A DNA stretch of 39,711 nt from a virus (lineage: Duplodnaviria; Heunggongvirae; Uroviricota; Caudoviricetes), in the IMG/VR virus record IMGVR_UViG_2563366967_000006. The stretch is one strand, 5' to 3'. Below are positions 3,013 through 11,453 of the stretch, piece by piece. A model generated the notes under the pieces. It did not search any database and was not told the DNA's origin. It was given only the letters and a program-made list of their open reading frames with translations. The translations under genes and the position numbers were made by a program. Position 1 is the first letter of the stretch. Each line of letters starts with the position of its first letter.

Positions 3013-3693
3013 TCATCGCCATTGCTCCCCAAATACAAAACCAATTTCAGCCAGTGCCTCGTCCATTTTTTCGATGAACTCCGGCACCATCTCGTCAAAA
3101 CTCGCCATGTACTTTTCATCCCGCTCAACCACGACATAATGCAGTCCTTCACGCTTCATACGCGGGTCATAGTTGGCAAAGTACCAGGCATCTTTTCGTG
3201 TTACCCACATGCTGTACTGCACCTGGGCCATGTAAGCCGACTTTATGGCCTCGAAACCACCGAGCCGGAACTTCATGAAATCCCGGGAGGTAAACGGGCA
3301 TTTCAGCTCAAGGCCATTGCCGTCACTGCATAAACCATCGGGAGAGCAGGCGGTGCGCATACTTTCGTCGCGATAGATGATCGGGGATTCAGTAACATTC
3401 ACGCCGGAAGTGAATTCAAACAGGGTTCTGGCGTCGTTCTCGTACTGTTTTCCCCAGGCCAGCGCCTTAGCATTAACTTCCGGAGCCACACCGGTGCAAA
3501 CCTCAGCCAGCAGGGTGTGGAAGTAGGACATTTTCATGTCAGGCCACTTCTTTCCGGAGCGGGGTTTTGCTATCACGTTGTGAACTTCTGAAGCGGTGAT
3601 GACGCCGAGCCGTAATTTGTGCCACGCATCATCCCCCTGTTCGACAGCTCTCACATCGATCCCGGTACGCTGCAGGATAATGTCCGGTGTCAT
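3013..3693 (-). CDS. exo: Lambda exonuclease (Red-alpha)
   Basis: 226-aa translation ([30 protein letters not shown]...) is near-identical to lambda Exo as I recall it. Confidence 0.95.
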
Positions 3694-4475
3694 GCTGCCA
3701 CCTTCTGCTCTGCGGCTTTCTGTTTCAGGAATCCAAGAGCTTTTACTGCTTCGGCCTGTGTCAGTTCTGACGATGCACGAATGTCGCGGCGAAATATCTG
3801 GGAACAGAGTGGCAATAAGTCGTCATCCCATGTTTTATCCAGGGCGATCAGCAGAGTGTTAATCTCCTGCATGGTTTCATCGTTAACCGGAGTGATGTCG
3901 CGTTCCGGCTGGCGTTCTGCAGTGTATGCAGTATTTTCGACAATGCGCTCGGCTTCATCCTTGTCATAGATACCAGCAAATCCGAAGGCCAGACGGGCAC
4001 ACTGAATCATGGCTTTATGCCGTAACATTCGTTTGGGATGCGACTGCCACGGCCCCGTGATTTCTCTGCCTTCGCGAGTTTTGAATGGTTCGCGGCGGCA
4101 TTCATCCATCCATTCGGTAACGCAGATCGGATGATTACGGTCCTTGCGGTAAATCCGGCATGTACAGGATTCATTGTCCTGTTCAAAGTCCATGCCGTCA
4201 AACTGCTGGTTTTCGTTGATGATGCGGGACCAGCCATCAACGCCCACCACCGGAACGATGCCGTTCTGCTTATCAGGGAAGGCGTAAATTTCTTTCGTCC
4301 ACGGATTAAGGCCGTATTGGTTGGCGACGATCAGCAATGCGATGAACTGCGCATCGCTGGCATCGCCTTTAAATGCTGTCTGGCGAAGAGTGGTGATCAG
4401 TTCCTGTGGGTCGACAGAATCCATGCCGACACGTTCAGCCAGCTTCCCTGCCAGCGTTGCGAGTGCTGTACTCAT
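3690..4475 (-). CDS. bet: Red-beta single-strand annealing protein
   Basis: 261-aa translation ([59 protein letters not shown]...) matches lambda Bet; overlaps exo by 4 nt. Confidence 0.95.
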
Positions 4476-4480
4476 CCGTT

Positions 4481-4777
4481 TTATACCTCTGAATCAATAT
4501 CAACCTGATGGTGAGCAATGGTTTCAACCATGTACCGGATGTGTTCTGCCATGCGCTCCTGAAACTCAACATCGTCATCAAACGCACGGGTAATGGCTTT
4601 TTTGCTGGCCCCGTGGCGTTGCAAATGATCGATGCATAGCGATTCAAACAGGTGCTGGGGCAGGCCTTTTTCCATGTCGTCTGCCAGTTCTGCCTCTTTC
4701 TCTTCACGGGCGATCTGCTGGTAGTGACGCGCCCAGCTTTGAGCCTCAAGACGATCCTGAATGTAATAAGCGTTCAT
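4481..4777 (-). CDS. gam: Gam, host RecBCD nuclease inhibitor
   Basis: 98-aa translation ([21 protein letters not shown]...[10 protein letters not shown]) matches the short form of lambda Gam. Confidence 0.9.
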
Positions 4778-4852
4778 GGCTGAACTCCTGAAAATGGCTG
4801 TGAAAATATCGCCCGCTAAATGCCAGGCTGATTAGGAAAACAGGAAAGGGGA

Positions 4853-5263
4853 TTAGTGATTCAGGCCGTTACCGCGTCCGTCGAGAAAAACTTCCACGAG
4901 CAAATCACGGGTATAAGTGCGCTCGATGCCGCGATGCAGATAAAGCCGTCCGCGTAAATTAGCTGATGCAGTCCAGGTACCATCTTTGTGTTTGACCAGC
5001 ATTCCTGGCATGACCGCACCTCGATTAACGGTCTGCGTTCCGTAATGTTGATGAACCATAAAAACTCCTGCCCGTAAGCTGGGCTGCTGAACATATAGAG
5101 ACTTCTGCGCGTATTCAGGCGGTGGATGGCCGCCGGTTGTCATAACTAAGCCGCCTCGTTGAAGCGACTGAGGTATGAGGTGTTGAGTTGATTTCAGCTG
5201 GTCACACCGACGTTCACACGTCCGTTTCACCCCTCGCACTCCCCGGAGCCTGCTGAAATTCAA
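4853..5263 (-). CDS. Hypothetical early-leftward protein; TTG start at 5263 or ATG start at about 5143 (96 aa)
   Basis: Only ORF between gam and the OL/PL-like operator cluster, where lambda carries kil-cIII-ral-N. The 5263 start is TTG; an in-frame ATG at about 5143 has a GAGG upstream. Arg-rich N-terminal extension. Confidence 0.35.
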   Translation of the reverse strand: MNFSRLRGVRGVKRTCERRCDQLKSTQHLIPQSLQRGGLVMTTGGHPPPEYAQKSLYVQQPSLRAGVFMVHQHYGTQTVNRGAVMPGMLVKHKDGTWTASANLRGRLYLHRGIERTYTRDLLVEVFLDGRGNGLNH

Positions 5264-5490
5264 GCTGCGGATCTAAGCGGTCATCGCAACGGTGAATCAG
5301 GTGGTTGCCGTATCGTTGTGTTGTTGCGATGAACTCATTTAAAACTATAGTTGTTTTACCGTCAACAACAAAAGTTGTTTCATTGGTTGTTTTAGATATA
5401 ACTGGTTGTATTTAGGATGGATTTATTTTGTGACTTGCATCGCATAGCGATAACTGAAGCGGGGGGTATGGTGGTTTTTTGAACGGTGTG
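5264..5490. promoter_or_regulatory. OL/PL-like operator-promoter cluster
   Basis: Several GGTTGT/ACAACC half-sites and inverted repeats (gttgtt...aacaac, aacaacaaaagttgtt, tggttgtt, ctggttgta), the same half-site as in the cI-cro intergenic region. Confidence 0.45.
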
Positions 5491-5499
5491 TGATGAGGG

Positions 5500-5528
5500 G
5501 AGGCAAAAGAAAACCCGGCACGACGGCC
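5500..5528 (-). terminator. Putative intrinsic terminator downstream of the membrane-protein gene
   Basis: Plus strand reads gcaaaagaaaacccggcacgacggccggg; on the minus strand this is a CCCGGC/GCCGGG hairpin followed by TTTTCTTTTG, directly after the stop at 5540. Confidence 0.5.
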
Positions 5529-5539
5529 GGGGAGGGGGG

Positions 5540-6046
5540 TCATTTTAATCTATCAAGGAGTGACTCTCTTTCCTTCTTCTCTGATTCTCTTCGGTTTAAT
5601 AACGCTTTAAACTCTTGAAGCTCAACCATTATTTTATGAACGAATACACTGGTATAGAGAGAAATAAAGAGTAATCCACCTGAAATTTTTAAGACCCTGA
5701 AGAGTAGGGCTTGATCATTTGTGCTTGCTATTAACCCCAAGATTACAAACAAAGTTGAAAATACATAGAAAGCTAATAATAAAACCAATTTCAGTCTCTT
5801 GGATTTGACTATTGGCACTAATCGCCTAACCTCACTAGGGGTTAAAGACGAGTGGTCATTGGCCTCATTTGCCTTAAAAATGGCTTGTATACAATATGAT
5901 AATGGCAATTGCATGAGTCCAACCACAGCCCACGGAGCAGTTAGGACAACACCCGGTGTAATATAGCCCAATGCTGACTTGAACAAAAAGTAACCAGCAA
6001 AATAGAAGACCAACATACCAATAAGGTGGATGATGTTCGATTTCAT
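5540..6046 (-). CDS. Unknown multi-pass membrane protein (168 aa, about 4 hydrophobic segments, charged C-terminal tail), second gene of the cassette in the rexB position
   Basis: Four long hydrophobic stretches followed by a charged tail (RRESEKKERESLLDRLK). Strong RBS (aaaaggaggg) 21 nt after the upstream gene's stop. AT-rich. Confidence 0.8.
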   Translation of the reverse strand: MKSNIIHLIGMLVFYFAGYFLFKSALGYITPGVVLTAPWAVVGLMQLPLSYCIQAIFKANEANDHSSLTPSEVRRLVPIVKSKRLKLVLLLAFYVFSTLFVILGLIASTNDQALLFRVLKISGGLLFISLYTSVFVHKIMVELQEFKALLNRRESEKKERESLLDRLK

Positions 6047-6067
6047 TATCGCCCTCCTTTTGGTAGG

Positions 6068-7090
6068 TTATTTTGCAACCAATTCTCCGGCATCAAGTTT
6101 TGAGAACAGCCACTTATGCATTTTTAAGAATAAATCATTTTCATCAATAATGCCATTGTTATATTCAACGCTAATTTTTCCGGATAATTTTATCTCTTTT
6201 CCCGTTATTTCCCCACCGCCTTGAAGTTTGATGCTAATATCATCCTCATCTAGATGTCGTAGTGAGGTAGCAATACTGTCTATAACAGCTTGACCGCTAT
6301 CATTTGTTTTTCTGAAGTATGTAATCTCGAGGCTTACTTGTAAATTGGCCTCATCTAATGAATCTTTAATGTTTATATCATTTGCCCAGTTATCGCCAAA
6401 AAATGCTTTTAGTAGCGCACCTCCTTTCCCTATTGGGCGGTATTTTATTGTCTTCACCGAACCATTTGAAAAGGAGGGTGTTTGGTTCTCTGAATTTTTA
6501 ACTTCTGAAGTAATGGGTAATCCACCAATTTTTATGCTCTTGGCTGGTGCTTTCTCCATTTTTTTCATCGTTTCTTCGGATGGCTTATCTTGAAGCATTA
6601 ACACAGATTCTTTTTCATCTGTGAATGTATTAATTAGCCAATTCAAATGCGCCTCAAGCTCCCTTGCTCGAAGCGATGTGGATTGAACGATCATGACATG
6701 GTTGTTTAGTACACCAAAATATAAAATTGAATCTACAAACTCTCTTTTTTTGTCACTACGTTTATCTCCATCAATAATTATATCATTAGACGTGATGGAG
6801 TTAATGTCATAAAATTTAACATTATCACTAAGCTCTAATAGAGACTGGCTTTTGTCTTTTTCAAATAAAACCAGTTGCCCAAAAAGTATAGTTTTGTATG
6901 TGTCGCTTTTATTTAAGAAACGATACCCCGAATTTTCATCTGAAGGTGTTATTTTTTCTTGTCTACTAAGTACTTTTTCTGCAACGCCGCCCTCACCTAT
7001 AATACTAAGTAGTATGTTTTGTAATGATGATTTGCTGTGTGGGATTACTGCTTTTTTATAATGAACGACTTTTTGTCTGTTATCTTTCAT
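6068..7090 (-). CDS. Unknown soluble protein (340 aa), first gene of the cassette in the rexA position
   Basis: ATG at 7090; immediately downstream of cI on the same strand. Lys/Asn/Ser-rich and AT-rich; no P-loop or nuclease motif seen by eye. Confidence 0.8.
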   Translation of the reverse strand: MKDNRQKVVHYKKAVIPHSKSSLQNILLSIIGEGGVAEKVLSRQEKITPSDENSGYRFLNKSDTYKTILFGQLVLFEKDKSQSLLELSDNVKFYDINSITSNDIIIDGDKRSDKKREFVDSILYFGVLNNHVMIVQSTSLRARELEAHLNWLINTFTDEKESVLMLQDKPSEETMKKMEKAPAKSIKIGGLPITSEVKNSENQTPSFSNGSVKTIKYRPIGKGGALLKAFFGDNWANDINIKDSLDEANLQVSLEITYFRKTNDSGQAVIDSIATSLRHLDEDDISIKLQGGGEITGKEIKLSGKISVEYNNGIIDENDLFLKMHKWLFSKLDAGELVAK

Positions 7091-7147
7091 TGCTATAGTC
7101 CAACTAGTATTGAATAAATAAACACAGTAAAGACATAAAAATTTCTT

Positions 7148-7177
7148 ATAGCTACCGATAACGTAATCGGTAGCTAT
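7148..7177. repeat. Perfect 12-bp inverted repeat with 6-nt spacer (atagctaccgat-aacgta-atcggtagctat)
   Basis: Read directly from the sequence between the cI stop (7213) and the 340-aa gene start (7090); on the minus strand a short T-run (AAGAAATTTTTATG) follows. Confidence 0.55.
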
Positions 7178-7212
7178 TACAAATCAACCAAAGGTAATTC
7201 TTTACATACTAC

Positions 7213-7902
7213 CTACCCATGCTTCCTGTAGGTCTGCGGCATGCTCCCAATAACTTTCCCGAAGATAAACACCCGGTTCATCTCGTCTTTCTCAATTGGG
7301 TCCCACGGCGAGTAGCTCTTGTTATCAGAGATAACCAGTAGCTTATCCTTCATCATTTGCAGGCGCTTTACATGGGCTGTGTCGTCGTACAGAAACGCAT
7401 AGATACCATCACCGTCGAAAGATTTAACTGTGATATCAACGAACAGCAGATCACCTGGTTCGATCGTTCCTGACATGCTGTCACCACGCACGTTAATGAT
7501 GCGGATATTTTCCGCCTTCCTACCATCGAACATGTGACGAGCATCGTCAAACGAGTACTCAACCGAGCGTAGAACTTCTACAAACTCACGGTTGATGACT
7601 CCCGGCCCAGCACTGACTTCTATATCAAGAACGTCAATCTTAAAGTATTTGGAATGGCTGACAGTTGATAGTATTGGTTGCACTGTACTGTCTGACATAT
7701 TTCCAACGCCAGAAGATAACCATTCTGCGCGCACACCCAAAGCGTTCGCGATCTCCACGATTTTAGTTGTTTGGTTAGCTTTCCCTGTTTCGATTTTCTG
7801 AATAGCAGCTTGGCTAACCCCGACCAAATCCCCAAGCGCCTTTTGTGTAAGGCCTCGCGCTAATCTGGCTTCTTTAAGTCTTTCTGAGAGTGTTGTTTTC
7901 AT
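7213..7902 (-). CDS. cI: CI-type prophage repressor (HTH plus S24/LexA-like peptidase)
   Basis: N-terminal HTH (LTQKALGDLVGVSQAAIQKIETGK) and C-terminal peptidase-like domain with GDSM. The likely start is the internal ATG at 7902 (MKTTLSERL...); the ORF track extends to 7968. Not lambda cI. Confidence 0.85.
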   Translation of the reverse strand: MKTTLSERLKEARLARGLTQKALGDLVGVSQAAIQKIETGKANQTTKIVEIANALGVRAEWLSSGVGNMSDSTVQPILSTVSHSKYFKIDVLDIEVSAGPGVINREFVEVLRSVEYSFDDARHMFDGRKAENIRIINVRGDSMSGTIEPGDLLFVDITVKSFDGDGIYAFLYDDTAHVKRLQMMKDKLLVISDNKSYSPWDPIEKDEMNRVFIFGKVIGSMPQTYRKHG

Positions 7903-8006
7903 AGTCCAAATGTACAACCAAGGTTTTATTCCATCAAACGAAAATGGTTGTTGACTAAAAACAACCATAGTTTTAATCTTGATTCAAATTAACCACGGAG
8001 GTTGTT
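7903..8006. promoter_or_regulatory. OR/PRM/PR-like divergent operator-promoter region
   Basis: Inverted repeat ATGGTTGTT-7 nt-AACAACCAT at 7944-7968 overlapping a TTGACT -35-like hexamer, plus further ACAACCA/GGTTGTT half-sites near 7914-7925 and 7990-8005; RBS ggagg before the cro-like start. Confidence 0.55.
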
Positions 8007-8237
8007 ATGAACCCAGCTATCAAAACAGCGATCAATATCGTTGGTTCACAAAAGAAACTGGGCGCTGCCTGCGAAGTTTCACAGCAGGCCGTCTATAAGT
8101 GGCTTCACAACAAAGCAAAGGTATCCCCTGAACATGTCGGCAGCATTGTTACGGCTACTGGTGGAGTAGTGAAGGCATACCAGATTCGCCCGGATCTTCC
8201 GAAGTTGTTTCCACACACCGAAAAGAACGCAGCTTAA
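8007..8237 (+). CDS. Cro-like HTH regulator
   Basis: 76-aa ORF divergent from cI with an HTH-like stretch (QKKLGAACEVSQQAVYKW). Confidence 0.7.
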   Translation: MNPAIKTAINIVGSQKKLGAACEVSQQAVYKWLHNKAKVSPEHVGSIVTATGGVVKAYQIRPDLPKLFPHTEKNAA

Positions 8238-8306
8238 ATTTCCATTTCACGCTCTTTAACAATAAGCAATCAACTTAACAGTCAATTCAAACTAAAGGAG
8301 TCAATT

Positions 8307-8846
8307 ATGCAACCACTTACATACCAACAGACTAGCGGATTTAGCCCGACTGCGGTGATAAATCGTTCTCAAACAAAACAGGTGCCAGGCCACGAAAAAA
8401 TCCGTGATGCCGTCCGCGCCTGGTCGGCTGAAGATAATCAGGATGTCGTTGCCACACTCATTGTGAATGAGTATCGGGAGCAGGGCGGCGGCGCCATCGA
8501 TTTCCCTGATGATGTCAGCCGTGCACGCCAGAAGCTGTTCCGCTTCCTCGATAACAAATTCGATTCTGAAAAATACCGAAATAACGTGCGTGAACTGACC
8601 CCGGCAATTCTGGCGGTACTACCGCTGGAATATCGCGGTTACCTGGTTGAGCAGGATAGCTTCATGGCTAGGTTGGCTGAAATGGAAAAGGAACTCAGTG
8701 AGGCAAAACAGGCTGTCATTCTCAACGCACCACGCCACCAGAAACTGAAGGAGATGAGTGAAGGTATTGTGTCGATGTTTCGTGTGGACCCGGATCTGGC
8801 TGGTCCATTGATGGCGATGGTTACCACCATGTTGGGGGCAATATGA
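8307..8846 (+). CDS. CII-position early regulatory protein, possibly YdaT-like
   Basis: 179-aa ORF between the cro-like gene and O; the family name is a tentative recollection (motif PAILAVLPLEYRGY). Confidence 0.55.
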   Translation: MQPLTYQQTSGFSPTAVINRSQTKQVPGHEKIRDAVRAWSAEDNQDVVATLIVNEYREQGGGAIDFPDDVSRARQKLFRFLDNKFDSEKYRNNVRELTPAILAVLPLEYRGYLVEQDSFMARLAEMEKELSEAKQAVILNAPRHQKLKEMSEGIVSMFRVDPDLAGPLMAMVTTMLGAI

Positions 8847-8932
8847 CAGGCTCAGAAATGGCGAAAGCCGGTCTGCGGGAACAGAGCCGACTTTCAGGTG
8901 CAAATCGTAACACACTCATTGCGGGAGGAATT

Positions 8933-9862
8933 ATGGCAAACACTGCTGAGATATTCAATTTTCCAGTGCCGGATGTGGCACAAAAGGAGCCGCGCGTGGC
9001 AGATCTCGATGATGGTTATACGCGCATTGCAAATGAGTTGCTGGAAGCTGTGATGCTGGCCGGATTAACACAGCACCAGCTTCTGGTCTTCCTGGCTGTC
9101 ATGCGCAAAACATATGGCTTTAATAAAAAACTGGATTGGGTGAGCAACGAGCAACTTTCCGAGTTGACCGGGATATTGCCGCACAAGTGTTCTGCTGCAA
9201 AAAGTGTTCTGGTAAAGCGTGGGATTTTTATTCAGAGCGGGCGGAATATCGGCATTAATAATGTGGTCAGTGAATGGTCAACATTACCCGAATCAGGTAA
9301 GAAAAATAAAGTTTACCTGAAAGAGGTAAATTTACCTGAATCAGGTAAGAAAAGTTTACCCAAATCAGGTAAAGACGTTTACCCGAATCAGGTAAACACA
9401 AAAGACAAACTAACAAAAGACAATATAAAACCTTTTTCGTCCGAGAATTCTGGCGAATCCTCTGACCAGCCAGAAAACGATCTTCCTGTGGTGAAACCGG
9501 ATGCTGCAATTCAGAGCGGCAGCAAGTGGGGGACAGCAGAAGACCTGACCGCCGCAGAGTGGATGTTTGACATGGTGAAGACCATCGCGCCATCAGCCAG
9601 AAAACCGAATTTTGCAGGGTGGGCCAACGACATCCGCCTGATGCGTGAGCGTGACGGGCGTAACCATCGCGACATGTGCGTTCTGTTCCGCTGGGCCTGC
9701 CAGGACAACTTCTGGTCCGGTAACGTGCTGAGTCCAGCAAAACTCCGCGACAAGTGGACTCAGCTCGAAATTAACCGCAACAAGCAACAGGCTGGTGTGA
9801 CTGCCAGCAAACCAAAACTCGACCTGACAAACACTGACTGGATTTACGGGGTGGAGCTATGA
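8933..9862 (+). CDS. O: Replication initiator protein O
   Basis: N-terminus resembles lambda O (VADLDDGYTRIANELLEA..., RKTYGFNK...); the gene contains the iteron array. Start taken at ATG 8933 with RBS gggagg; the track ORF begins at 8843. Confidence 0.85.
   Translation: MANTAEIFNFPVPDVAQKEPRVADLDDGYTRIANELLEAVMLAGLTQHQLLVFLAVMRKTYGFNKKLDWVSNEQLSELTGILPHKCSAAKSVLVKRGIFIQSGRNIGINNVVSEWSTLPESGKKNKVYLKEVNLPESGKKSLPKSGKDVYPNQVNTKDKLTKDNIKPFSSENSGESSDQPENDLPVVKPDAAIQSGSKWGTAEDLTAAEWMFDMVKTIAPSARKPNFAGWANDIRLMRERDGRNHRDMCVLFRWACQDNFWSGNVLSPAKLRDKWTQLEINRNKQQAGVTASKPKLDLTNTDWIYGVEL
9284..9397 (+). repeat. Origin iterons (five ~19-bp direct repeats, TTTACCYGAATCAGGTAAR) followed by an A-rich tract
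   Basis: Read directly: ttacccgaatcaggtaag, tttacctgaaagaggtaaa, tttacctgaatcaggtaag, tttacccaaatcaggtaaa, tttacccgaatcaggtaaa, then cacaaaagacaaactaacaaaagacaatataaaa. Confidence 0.8.
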
Positions 9863-10650: not shown

Positions 10651-11079
10651 TTATTTAGACAAACTATCTAATTTTTGCGTCGCTTTTTGTGTTAGGTCGC
10701 TGTAACTGATAAACCCTACGTTAGCACCTACAATTAACACTAAGAACACTAAGCTGCATATGGATAGAGTGGCAGATTTATGCTTATGGAAAACAAAATA
10801 TGCTACTATTGCACTTAATATGAAGGAAATGAATAGAAATATAGATGTTGATGTTTTTAGATATTTTTCAGGAAATAATGGGTGAGCAATAATGTATACA
10901 AGATTAAGTAGTATATAAATTGCTACCGGAATGAAAATCATGCTCCAGTGTGTATCTTTTTTGGGAGGGATTGGCTGCAAATAATCAGACACCGTTTTTC
11001 CATCAGTTTCAAGAAGAATTACTAGATCTCTTACTTCACCACTGACTTGAGTGCCATCCTTAGTAGTAATGTTAATCAT
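10651..11079 (-). CDS. Unknown membrane protein (~142 aa, soluble N-terminal region plus about 3 hydrophobic segments)
   Basis: Start taken at the internal ATG 11079 (MINITTKDG...), which overlaps the upstream stop as ATGA, with a GGAGGG RBS. The track ORF extends to 11136. AT-rich. Confidence 0.6.
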   Translation of the reverse strand: MINITTKDGTQVSGEVRDLVILLETDGKTVSDYLQPIPPKKDTHWSMIFIPVAIYILLNLVYIIAHPLFPEKYLKTSTSIFLFISFILSAIVAYFVFHKHKSATLSICSLVFLVLIVGANVGFISYSDLTQKATQKLDSLSK

Positions 11080-11453
11080 TTTTTCCCTCCAAATACGATT
11101 CCCTCTACGTCTTTGGAAGCTTTTTGTGATGACCACTCCTCTGAATCAGGTGATTTAATTAAAAATATTGTATCTCCATCAAAAATCGTATTTGTTCCGT
11201 AAAAATTTACATTTGATAGATCACCACCAAAAACCCTCTGCCCACTCGAGGTAATTGCCTCACCTAATTTAGTAAAATTACCTGCAATAGATGATTTTCT
11301 TTTTCCACTTCTATTCAAAGTGGCTTTAATTACACCACCACCATCCTTAGAGTTAAATAATTGAATGTCCACTCCAGCAGTTGGTTGTATATATTTTGAA
11401 AGCTCTTTCTTGAACTTGTTAATATATTTATCTTTGTTTTCTTTGTTGGTCAT
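11076..11453 (-). CDS. Unknown small soluble protein (125 aa), first gene of the ren-position cassette
   Basis: ORF antisense to the early rightward operon; Gly/Ser/Lys-rich; no motif recognised. AT-rich. Confidence 0.6.
   Translation of the reverse strand: MTNKENKDKYINKFKKELSKYIQPTAGVDIQLFNSKDGGGVIKATLNRSGKRKSSIAGNFTKLGEAITSSGQRVFGGDLSNVNFYGTNTIFDGDTIFLIKSPDSEEWSSQKASKDVEGIVFGGKK

Follow-up and report, generated by a model that had tools for sequence, protein, structure and literature searches.

A two-gene cassette that replaces rexAB beside a phage repressor gene: a probable abortive-infection module of the RexAB type

The RexAB pair of phage lambda is the oldest known abortive-infection system, and its activation is still unresolved. 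According to one account (PMC12894663), only five Rex-like systems have been described so far, lambda RexAB and four others. Here we describe two adjacent genes, A and B, lying next to the cI repressor gene in a caudoviricete virus record (IMG/VR IMGVR_UViG_2563366967_000006; the whole stretch of 39,711 nucleotides is referred to below as the window), which most likely represent a widespread but so far undescribed branch within the class of RexAB abortive-infection defences. The cassette is also carried by the sequenced temperate phage Perceval and by Stx2a, SfIV, and Acinetobacter prophages; it goes unseen by Pfam, PADLOC, and NCBIfam. The kind of system, the RexAB type, is known; the A/B family itself is new, having neither a Pfam nor a PADLOC model and no paper in the searchable literature. 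It would add a sixth Rex-like lineage, and one that is far more widespread.

Lambda RexA-RexB (PF15969/PF15968; PDB 8TWQ) has no detectable sequence or profile similarity to A and B, and the proteins differ in size, A having 340 aa against the 279 of RexA and B 168 aa against the 144 of RexB. Lambda RexB also lacks two features of B, the conserved E-x-R-R motif in the loop and the basic helix of ~28 residues at the C terminus. The two families differ further in their reach: RexA comprises 36 clusters from Enterobacterales only, whereas A comprises 788 clusters over several orders (exhaustive profile search, clusters at 50% identity, E<=1e-3). A similar layout is seen in gp30/gp31 of the mycobacteriophage Sbash (and in gp44/gp43 of the Gordonia phage CarolAnn), where a cytoplasmic protein of ~370 aa is followed by a 165-aa protein with four transmembrane (TM) segments; these have no sequence similarity to A and B, however, come from phages of actinobacterial hosts, and, in Sbash, lie after the lysis cassette and not beside the repressor. 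In the case of RexABpp from the Pseudomonas putida prophage P1 (PP_5643/PP_5644), HHpred detects RexApp against RexA (98% probability), whereas hhalign does not detect A. The RexABpp termini deduced from published primers (MHRTATFVE... and ...GLYYLGYKLQE) have no match in the members or loci of the A/B family, and the primer-derived DNA was absent from the viral and metagenome contigs searched. On a comparison confined to these termini, and given the HHpred result for RexApp, RexABpp is therefore probably a lineage different from A/B.

An initial annotation of the window, made from its letters alone, had assigned A and B to no recognizable sequence family, and this assessment stands. Searches of Pfam, PADLOC 2.0, and NCBIfam returned no match for either protein at E<=1, PDB sequence searches with single sequences and with a 149-sequence profile were likewise empty, and across 149 diverse relatives of A no Pfam or PADLOC family matched consistently, the RexA models of both libraries matching none of these relatives at E<=1. 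The PHROGs matches of the two proteins are only to families 3482 and 16807, both of unknown function, and RefSeq and the record of phage Perceval annotate them as "hypothetical" and "transmembrane protein." Literature searches with RefSeq accessions, phage Perceval, and Rex-like terms recovered no description of the family. As positive controls, lambda RexA was recovered at 1e-97 (Pfam) and 9e-110 (PADLOC) and lambda RexB at 8.5e-92 (Pfam) and 8.6e-61 (PADLOC); the validated Rex-like pair gp30/gp31 of Sbash proved equally invisible to Pfam and PADLOC.

The pair had been placed in the slot between OL/PL and cI that holds rexA-rexB in lambda. This placement is borne out, more strongly than initially stated, by an Escherichia coli prophage (L044), retrieved as the genomic context of a 48%-identical RexA homologue, with the gene order O, YdaT, YdaS, cI, RexA (PF15969), RexB (PF15968), KilR, Gam, RecT, and YqaJ. 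It is 98.2% identical to the window over 7214-9633 and 97.1% identical over 3491-5520, has no match to it between these two blocks, and carries rexA-rexB in the exact intervening interval. The right-hand homology stops exactly at the cI stop codon, and the left-hand homology restarts at a hairpin and T-run, which also follow rexB in this prophage and in lambda. As the flanks match and the difference is limited to the stretch between the cI stop codon and the terminator, the cassette is a precise replacement of rexAB: the swapped cargo is exactly the rexAB interval, which is a true allelic site. The terminator belongs to the backbone and corresponds to the one that follows rexB in lambda. Hence, of the earlier proposal that a hairpin and T-run close the cassette, the presence of these elements at its end holds, but they do not belong to the cargo. 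The described AT-rich island is evident too, with windowed GC of 0.31-0.39 over 5400-7200 against 0.47-0.54 in the flanking Red genes and cI. Among 5426 complete E. coli genomes, the A-B cassette is present in 42 and rexAB of the L044 type in 9. Isogenic prophage backbones with either classical rexAB or the A-B pair constitute a natural control, and the cI-to-terminator interval is a cargo-exchange site.

Protein A has no hydrophobic segments (maximum KD19 1.1) and a pI of 6.4. Its AlphaFold2 model, computed from a 50-sequence alignment, has a mean predicted local distance difference test score (pLDDT) of 70.8 and a predicted template modeling score (pTM) of 0.68, with good confidence at residues 1-80, 120-180, and 290-340 but poor confidence over 190-252. 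Its secondary-structure elements follow one another in an order consistent with a split globular domain, an inserted beta/alpha domain, and a helix at the C terminus, and the predicted model displays the split globular domain plus dimerization domain that characterize the RexA/RdgC-type fold. After RexA, the next matches in the fold search were CHL4 (7.0), CENP-N (6.4), RdgC (6.3), and IML3 (6.1), all much weaker than RexA, with the Corynebacterium glutamicum epimerase 3oh8 lower among the matches. RdgC, IML3/CHL4, and CENP-N are housekeeping or eukaryotic proteins that lack a membrane partner, and A has no Pfam match to RdgC. Adams et al. (PMC11077077) give the same set of structural relatives for the RexA crystal structure. 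That A and RexA share one set of relatives argues that the match reflects a shared fold and not an accident, and A is accordingly predicted to possess a RexA-like fold. A search of BFVD with A recovered only five unnamed phage proteins; the uncultured phage that supplies the best of these also encodes a 172-aa protein that is among the matches of B.

Protein B (pI 9.8) had been described as having about four hydrophobic segments and a charged tail, in agreement with both its hydropathy, which reveals four hydrophobic stretches and a K/R/E-rich tail, and a confident AlphaFold2 model of a four-helix bundle from a shallow alignment, which contains four long helices (2-26, 37-62, 70-107, and 112-167; pLDDT 83). 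The last of these helices runs ~28 residues past the membrane. As the central loop and the tail are rich in lysine and arginine, both ends of the protein and the central loop should be cytoplasmic. B is hence predicted to be a small protein that crosses the inner membrane four times, and its gene directly follows that of the RexA-like protein. Across the family, the four hydrophobic helices are kept, as are a motif in the TM2-TM3 loop (L-S/T-x-x-E-x-R-R-L, with E72 and R75 invariant), an E-I-x-x-F-K turn after TM4, and the basic C-terminal helix. The top BFVD match of B, and hence its best viral structural match, is weak (probability 0.99, E 0.079, TM 0.48); it is to a 165-aa Sbash protein, which by length and genome annotation is gp31. 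In gp31, R70A or D73A in the central cytoplasmic loop abolishes defence (PMC6426596), and these essential residues lie in the same loop as the invariant E72 and R75 of B. We consider this match to be suggestive, though not significant. A role for B as a holin was considered and rejected: near the lysis genes the pair lies on the opposite strand, and in the window it is part of the immunity region.

The possibility that A and B are chance open reading frames (ORFs) was also rejected, in view of the conservation of both. They are real genes because the A family comprises 788 clusters and B is kept downstream of A in 29 of 33 loci. At the stricter threshold of E<=1e-30 the A family retains 291 clusters, and a word-seeded search yielded ~130 clusters at 90% identity; the members are mostly 315-380 aa long. 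Named members come from Enterobacterales, Aeromonas, Pseudomonas, Halomonadaceae, Marinobacter, methanotrophs, Acinetobacter phages, and Suttonella, and a 28%-identical homologue is found in a metagenome-assembled genome of Cytophagales. In those 29 loci, the B homologue begins only a few bases away from the stop codon of A and is 165-190 aa long (hmmsearch E<=5e-9). The pairwise identities of A and B co-vary over 28 loci (Pearson 0.95, Spearman 0.79; none of 2000 permutations as high), and the genes hence move and evolve together, with A having a mean pairwise identity of 48% versus 31% for B. What is kept on these prophages and mobile elements is an adjacent pair of a predicted RexA-fold protein and a four-TM protein.

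In 12 of the 32 other loci, a CI/S24 repressor is encoded on the same strand no more than 1.2 kb upstream of the pair, with instances from Morganella, an Acinetobacter phage, Pseudomonas, Methylobacter, Marinobacter, and Chromohalobacter. In a Klebsiella prophage, in SfIV, and in Stx2a phages the pair is instead flanked by Q and the lysis or stx2 genes, and in Aeromonas and Oceanospirillum it stands at the end of integrative elements; all these positions are typical for defence cargo. In the Acinetobacter phage phi1_092021 (PQ859669, 36216-37217), a 32%-identical A homologue lies 3' of the phage repressor and 5' of a 167-aa B homologue. It bears the GenBank label "DefenseFinder protein," the sole hint that the family had been recognized before; we suspect that the label came from a structure-based annotator. 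Among the Stx2a-converting phages of E. coli O157:H7, phage 1447 (AP012536, 13770-15333) has a 34%-identical A/B pair on the opposite strand, placed between Q and a block of DNA methylase, tRNA, and stx2AB. In three Aeromonas veronii loci (L006-L008), the pair is the terminal cargo of a small element with Ogr/Delta, GPO-N, a P2-type capsid gene, and a primase, and in Oceanospirillum sanctuarii (L053) it is the terminal cargo of an element with an integrase, a DUF3987 protein, and a Toprim-domain protein; these elements look like phage satellites. Two copies are interrupted by insertion sequences: in E. coli T309.Ta3, IS3 splits gene A and leaves B intact, and in the Shigella phage SfIV, IS1 cuts B to 108 aa and leaves A intact. 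These insertions are anecdotal and compatible with a costly module.

The present analysis shows how the two genes are arranged, that the pair is conserved and diverges jointly, which fold is predicted for A and which topology for B, and that rexAB is replaced exactly. On this basis we propose that the cassette is an abortive-infection or exclusion module of the RexAB type, made of two components and carried by a prophage, from a family not previously linked to Rex. We hold this to be somewhat probable, and several results weigh against it. Profile alignment of the A and RexA families by hhalign gave E-values of 0.78 and 0.073 (probability 0.8%); the best alignment spans 52 columns and falls within the expected middle domain of both proteins, and homology is not confirmed by it. 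The reciprocal hmmsearch between the two families gave E-values of at least 0.36, and hhalign of the B and RexB families gave 0.14. HMM (hidden Markov model) searches link A and B to none of RexA, RexB, Sbash gp30, and Sbash gp31. The caution with which the initial annotation treated a local resemblance to RexA was also justified, as the stretches concerned (TILFGQLV... in A and TFLFTKTN... in RexA) match without statistical support (hmmsearch/hhalign E ~0.07 to 3). On the structural side, the E-value of 0.079 between B and gp31 is not significant, four-helix bundles readily match one another, and lambda RexB is not among the BFVD matches of B. The pair is absent from PADLOC 2.0, and the searchable literature holds no experiment on the family. 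Further, a hairpin and T-run in the spacer between cI and A, together with the weak ribosome-binding site of A, leave the co-transcription of cI-A-B and the expression of the pair unproven.

The same components could also work the other way round, with A as the effector, toxic or antiviral, and B as an anchor in the membrane that keeps A sequestered until infection sets it free. The Rex-like pair gp30/gp31 of phage Butters operates with such reversed logic (PMC7542560; PMC12894663), no computed result tells which partner of the present pair is the effector, and A is the better conserved of the two. We nevertheless regard this arrangement as unlikely, since in lambda, Sbash, CarolAnn, and P. 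putida the effector role falls to the membrane protein, and neither A nor its 149 relatives match any nuclease, NTPase, or other enzymatic motif or family. The interrupted copies, with IS3 in A beside an intact B and IS1 in B beside an intact A, indicate that each partner is tolerated alone and are therefore neutral as to the identity of the effector. Quite improbable, in our view, is the notion that the pair chiefly serves the lysis-lysogeny switch of its own prophage and not defence against other phages. The genes do lie within the putative cI transcription unit, A has a predicted RexA-like fold, and lambda RexA biases the switch toward lytic growth (PMC11077077). In most loci, however, the pair is not beside a repressor; some copies lie in the interval from Q to the lysis or stx genes, on the opposite strand, and others in integrative elements without a cI-type switch, settings that point to an autonomous function. 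The strict retention of the membrane partner is a further argument against a role confined to the switch.

The pair might, finally, be a moron unrelated to Rex, in which B acts alone at the membrane, whether by blocking DNA entry in the manner of Sie/Imm-type exclusion or as a transporter or stress protein, and the likeness of A to RexA is convergent or a modeling artefact. The lack of sequence homology to any Rex protein and the medium confidence of the A model speak for it, and weak EmrE-like matches of B, which are at chance level, have also been listed in its favor. On the other side stand the structural relatives common to A and RexA and the tight coupling of A with B set out above, and we deem this explanation improbable.

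For the module of the RexAB type, we infer expression in the lysogen, DNA binding, signalling between A and B, membrane depolarization, and anti-phage activity, which could be joined as follows. A would be a cytoplasmic RexA/RdgC-fold protein and, by analogy with RexA, a dimeric clamp that binds DNA non-specifically; the lysogen would produce it from the repressor transcription unit, which would run through cI, A, and B to the common terminator. When another phage infects, A might sense a phage protein or a DNA-protein intermediate of replication or recombination and then activate B, a four-helix inner-membrane protein with both termini inside. Activation would probably proceed via one of two parts of B, the conserved cytoplasmic loop between TM2 and TM3 (L-S-x-x-E-x-R-R-L) or the basic C-terminal helix. 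The activated B could oligomerize or open, so that membrane potential would be lost or the membrane permeabilized, growth would halt, and the infection would abort. More tentatively, immunity of the RexAB type may represent a large structural superfamily overlooked by HMM-based defence finders, with A/B (about 800 clusters at 50% identity) as its most widespread branch, ranging from Enterobacterales to Pseudomonas, Acinetobacter, methanotrophs, and possibly Bacteroidota. This branch would exchange as an allele with classical rexAB at one site of one prophage and have its own trigger specificity and effector mechanism, in which B would use its E-x-R-R loop and its basic C-terminal helix. Since it occurs in E. 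coli, Stx2a phages included, the step from RexA to RexB activation would be open to study via two interchangeable systems in one prophage backbone. The cassette also shows that the RexAB class is under-counted where inventories of defence systems rely on sequence HMMs.

Table 1. Features of the cassette and its surroundings (positions in the window)
Feature	Position	Strand	Description
Gene A	6068-7090	-	340-aa soluble protein; predicted RexA/RdgC-type fold; proposed cytoplasmic sensor and activator
Gene B	5540-6046	-	168-aa four-helix inner-membrane protein (predicted); proposed membrane effector
Shine-Dalgarno sequence of B, AAGGAGG	6053-6059	-	6 nt 5' of the B ATG and 8 nt 3' of the A stop codon; direct reading
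Intrinsic terminator, hairpin CCCGGC-loop-GCCGGG and T-run	5504-5531	-	From terminator scan; ends the putative cI-A-B unit
Perfect 12-bp hairpin in the 122-nt cI-A spacer (7091-7212)	7148-7177	-	Within the swapped cargo
cI-type repressor (helix-turn-helix plus S24)	7213-7902	-	Same strand, directly upstream; right boundary of the swapped interval
Putative OL/PL	about 5337-5405	-	TTGACG-17-TTAAAT and GGTTGTT/AACAACC half-sites; left landmark of the slot
OR/PR	7944-7979	+	Motifs common with the putative OL/PL
cro	8007-8237	+	Right end of the minus-strand reading order

The coordinates and sizes of the two co-oriented ORFs were recovered as initially annotated (Table 1), and the strong ribosome-binding site said to couple them is indeed contained in the 21-nt gap between the A stop codon (6070-6068) and the B start (6046). 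Read from right to left, the window contains cro, OR/PR, cI, the 122-nt spacer, A, the 21-nt spacer, B, the terminator, and the OL/PL-like region, to the left of which lie a kil-like ORF and then gam, bet, and exo. Directly 3' of B, the G+C hairpin of the terminator (5531-5514) is followed by TTTTCTTTTG. PL and PR are near-copies (TTGACG-17-TTAAAT versus TTGACT-17-TAATCT), and the operator half-sites GGTTGTT/AACAACC and the motif ATAGTTTTAA are common to both regions. A search of Rfam with positions 4500-9000 gave no match. There is no N-like antiterminator ORF between the putative PL (about 5337-5365) and the kil-like ORF, an observation that concerns positions 5263-5540 and the minus-strand ORF 4853-5263.

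A and B share the strand of cI, and the terminator is common to the putative unit. The hairpin in the cI-A spacer has the form ATAGCTACCGAT-TACGTT-ATCGGTAGCTAT, with TTTTTAT 6 nt further on; the spacer fold (131 nt) has a z of -3.3, the terminator scan found no match between cI and A, and gene A is without a good Shine-Dalgarno sequence. The promoter scan performed no better than on shuffled sequence (11 found versus 8.2 expected). The hairpin may act on expression of the cargo, whether as an attenuator, as an element of RNA stability, or as a palindrome bound by a protein.

Another AT-rich island (GC about 0.34) is situated on the minus strand at 10651-11453, between the replication gene P and the nin region. 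It contains two overlapping ORFs without a Pfam or PADLOC family match, one for a soluble protein of 125 aa and the other for a protein of ~142-161 aa whose C-terminal part is a multi-pass membrane region, and it is a candidate for another moron or defence pair.

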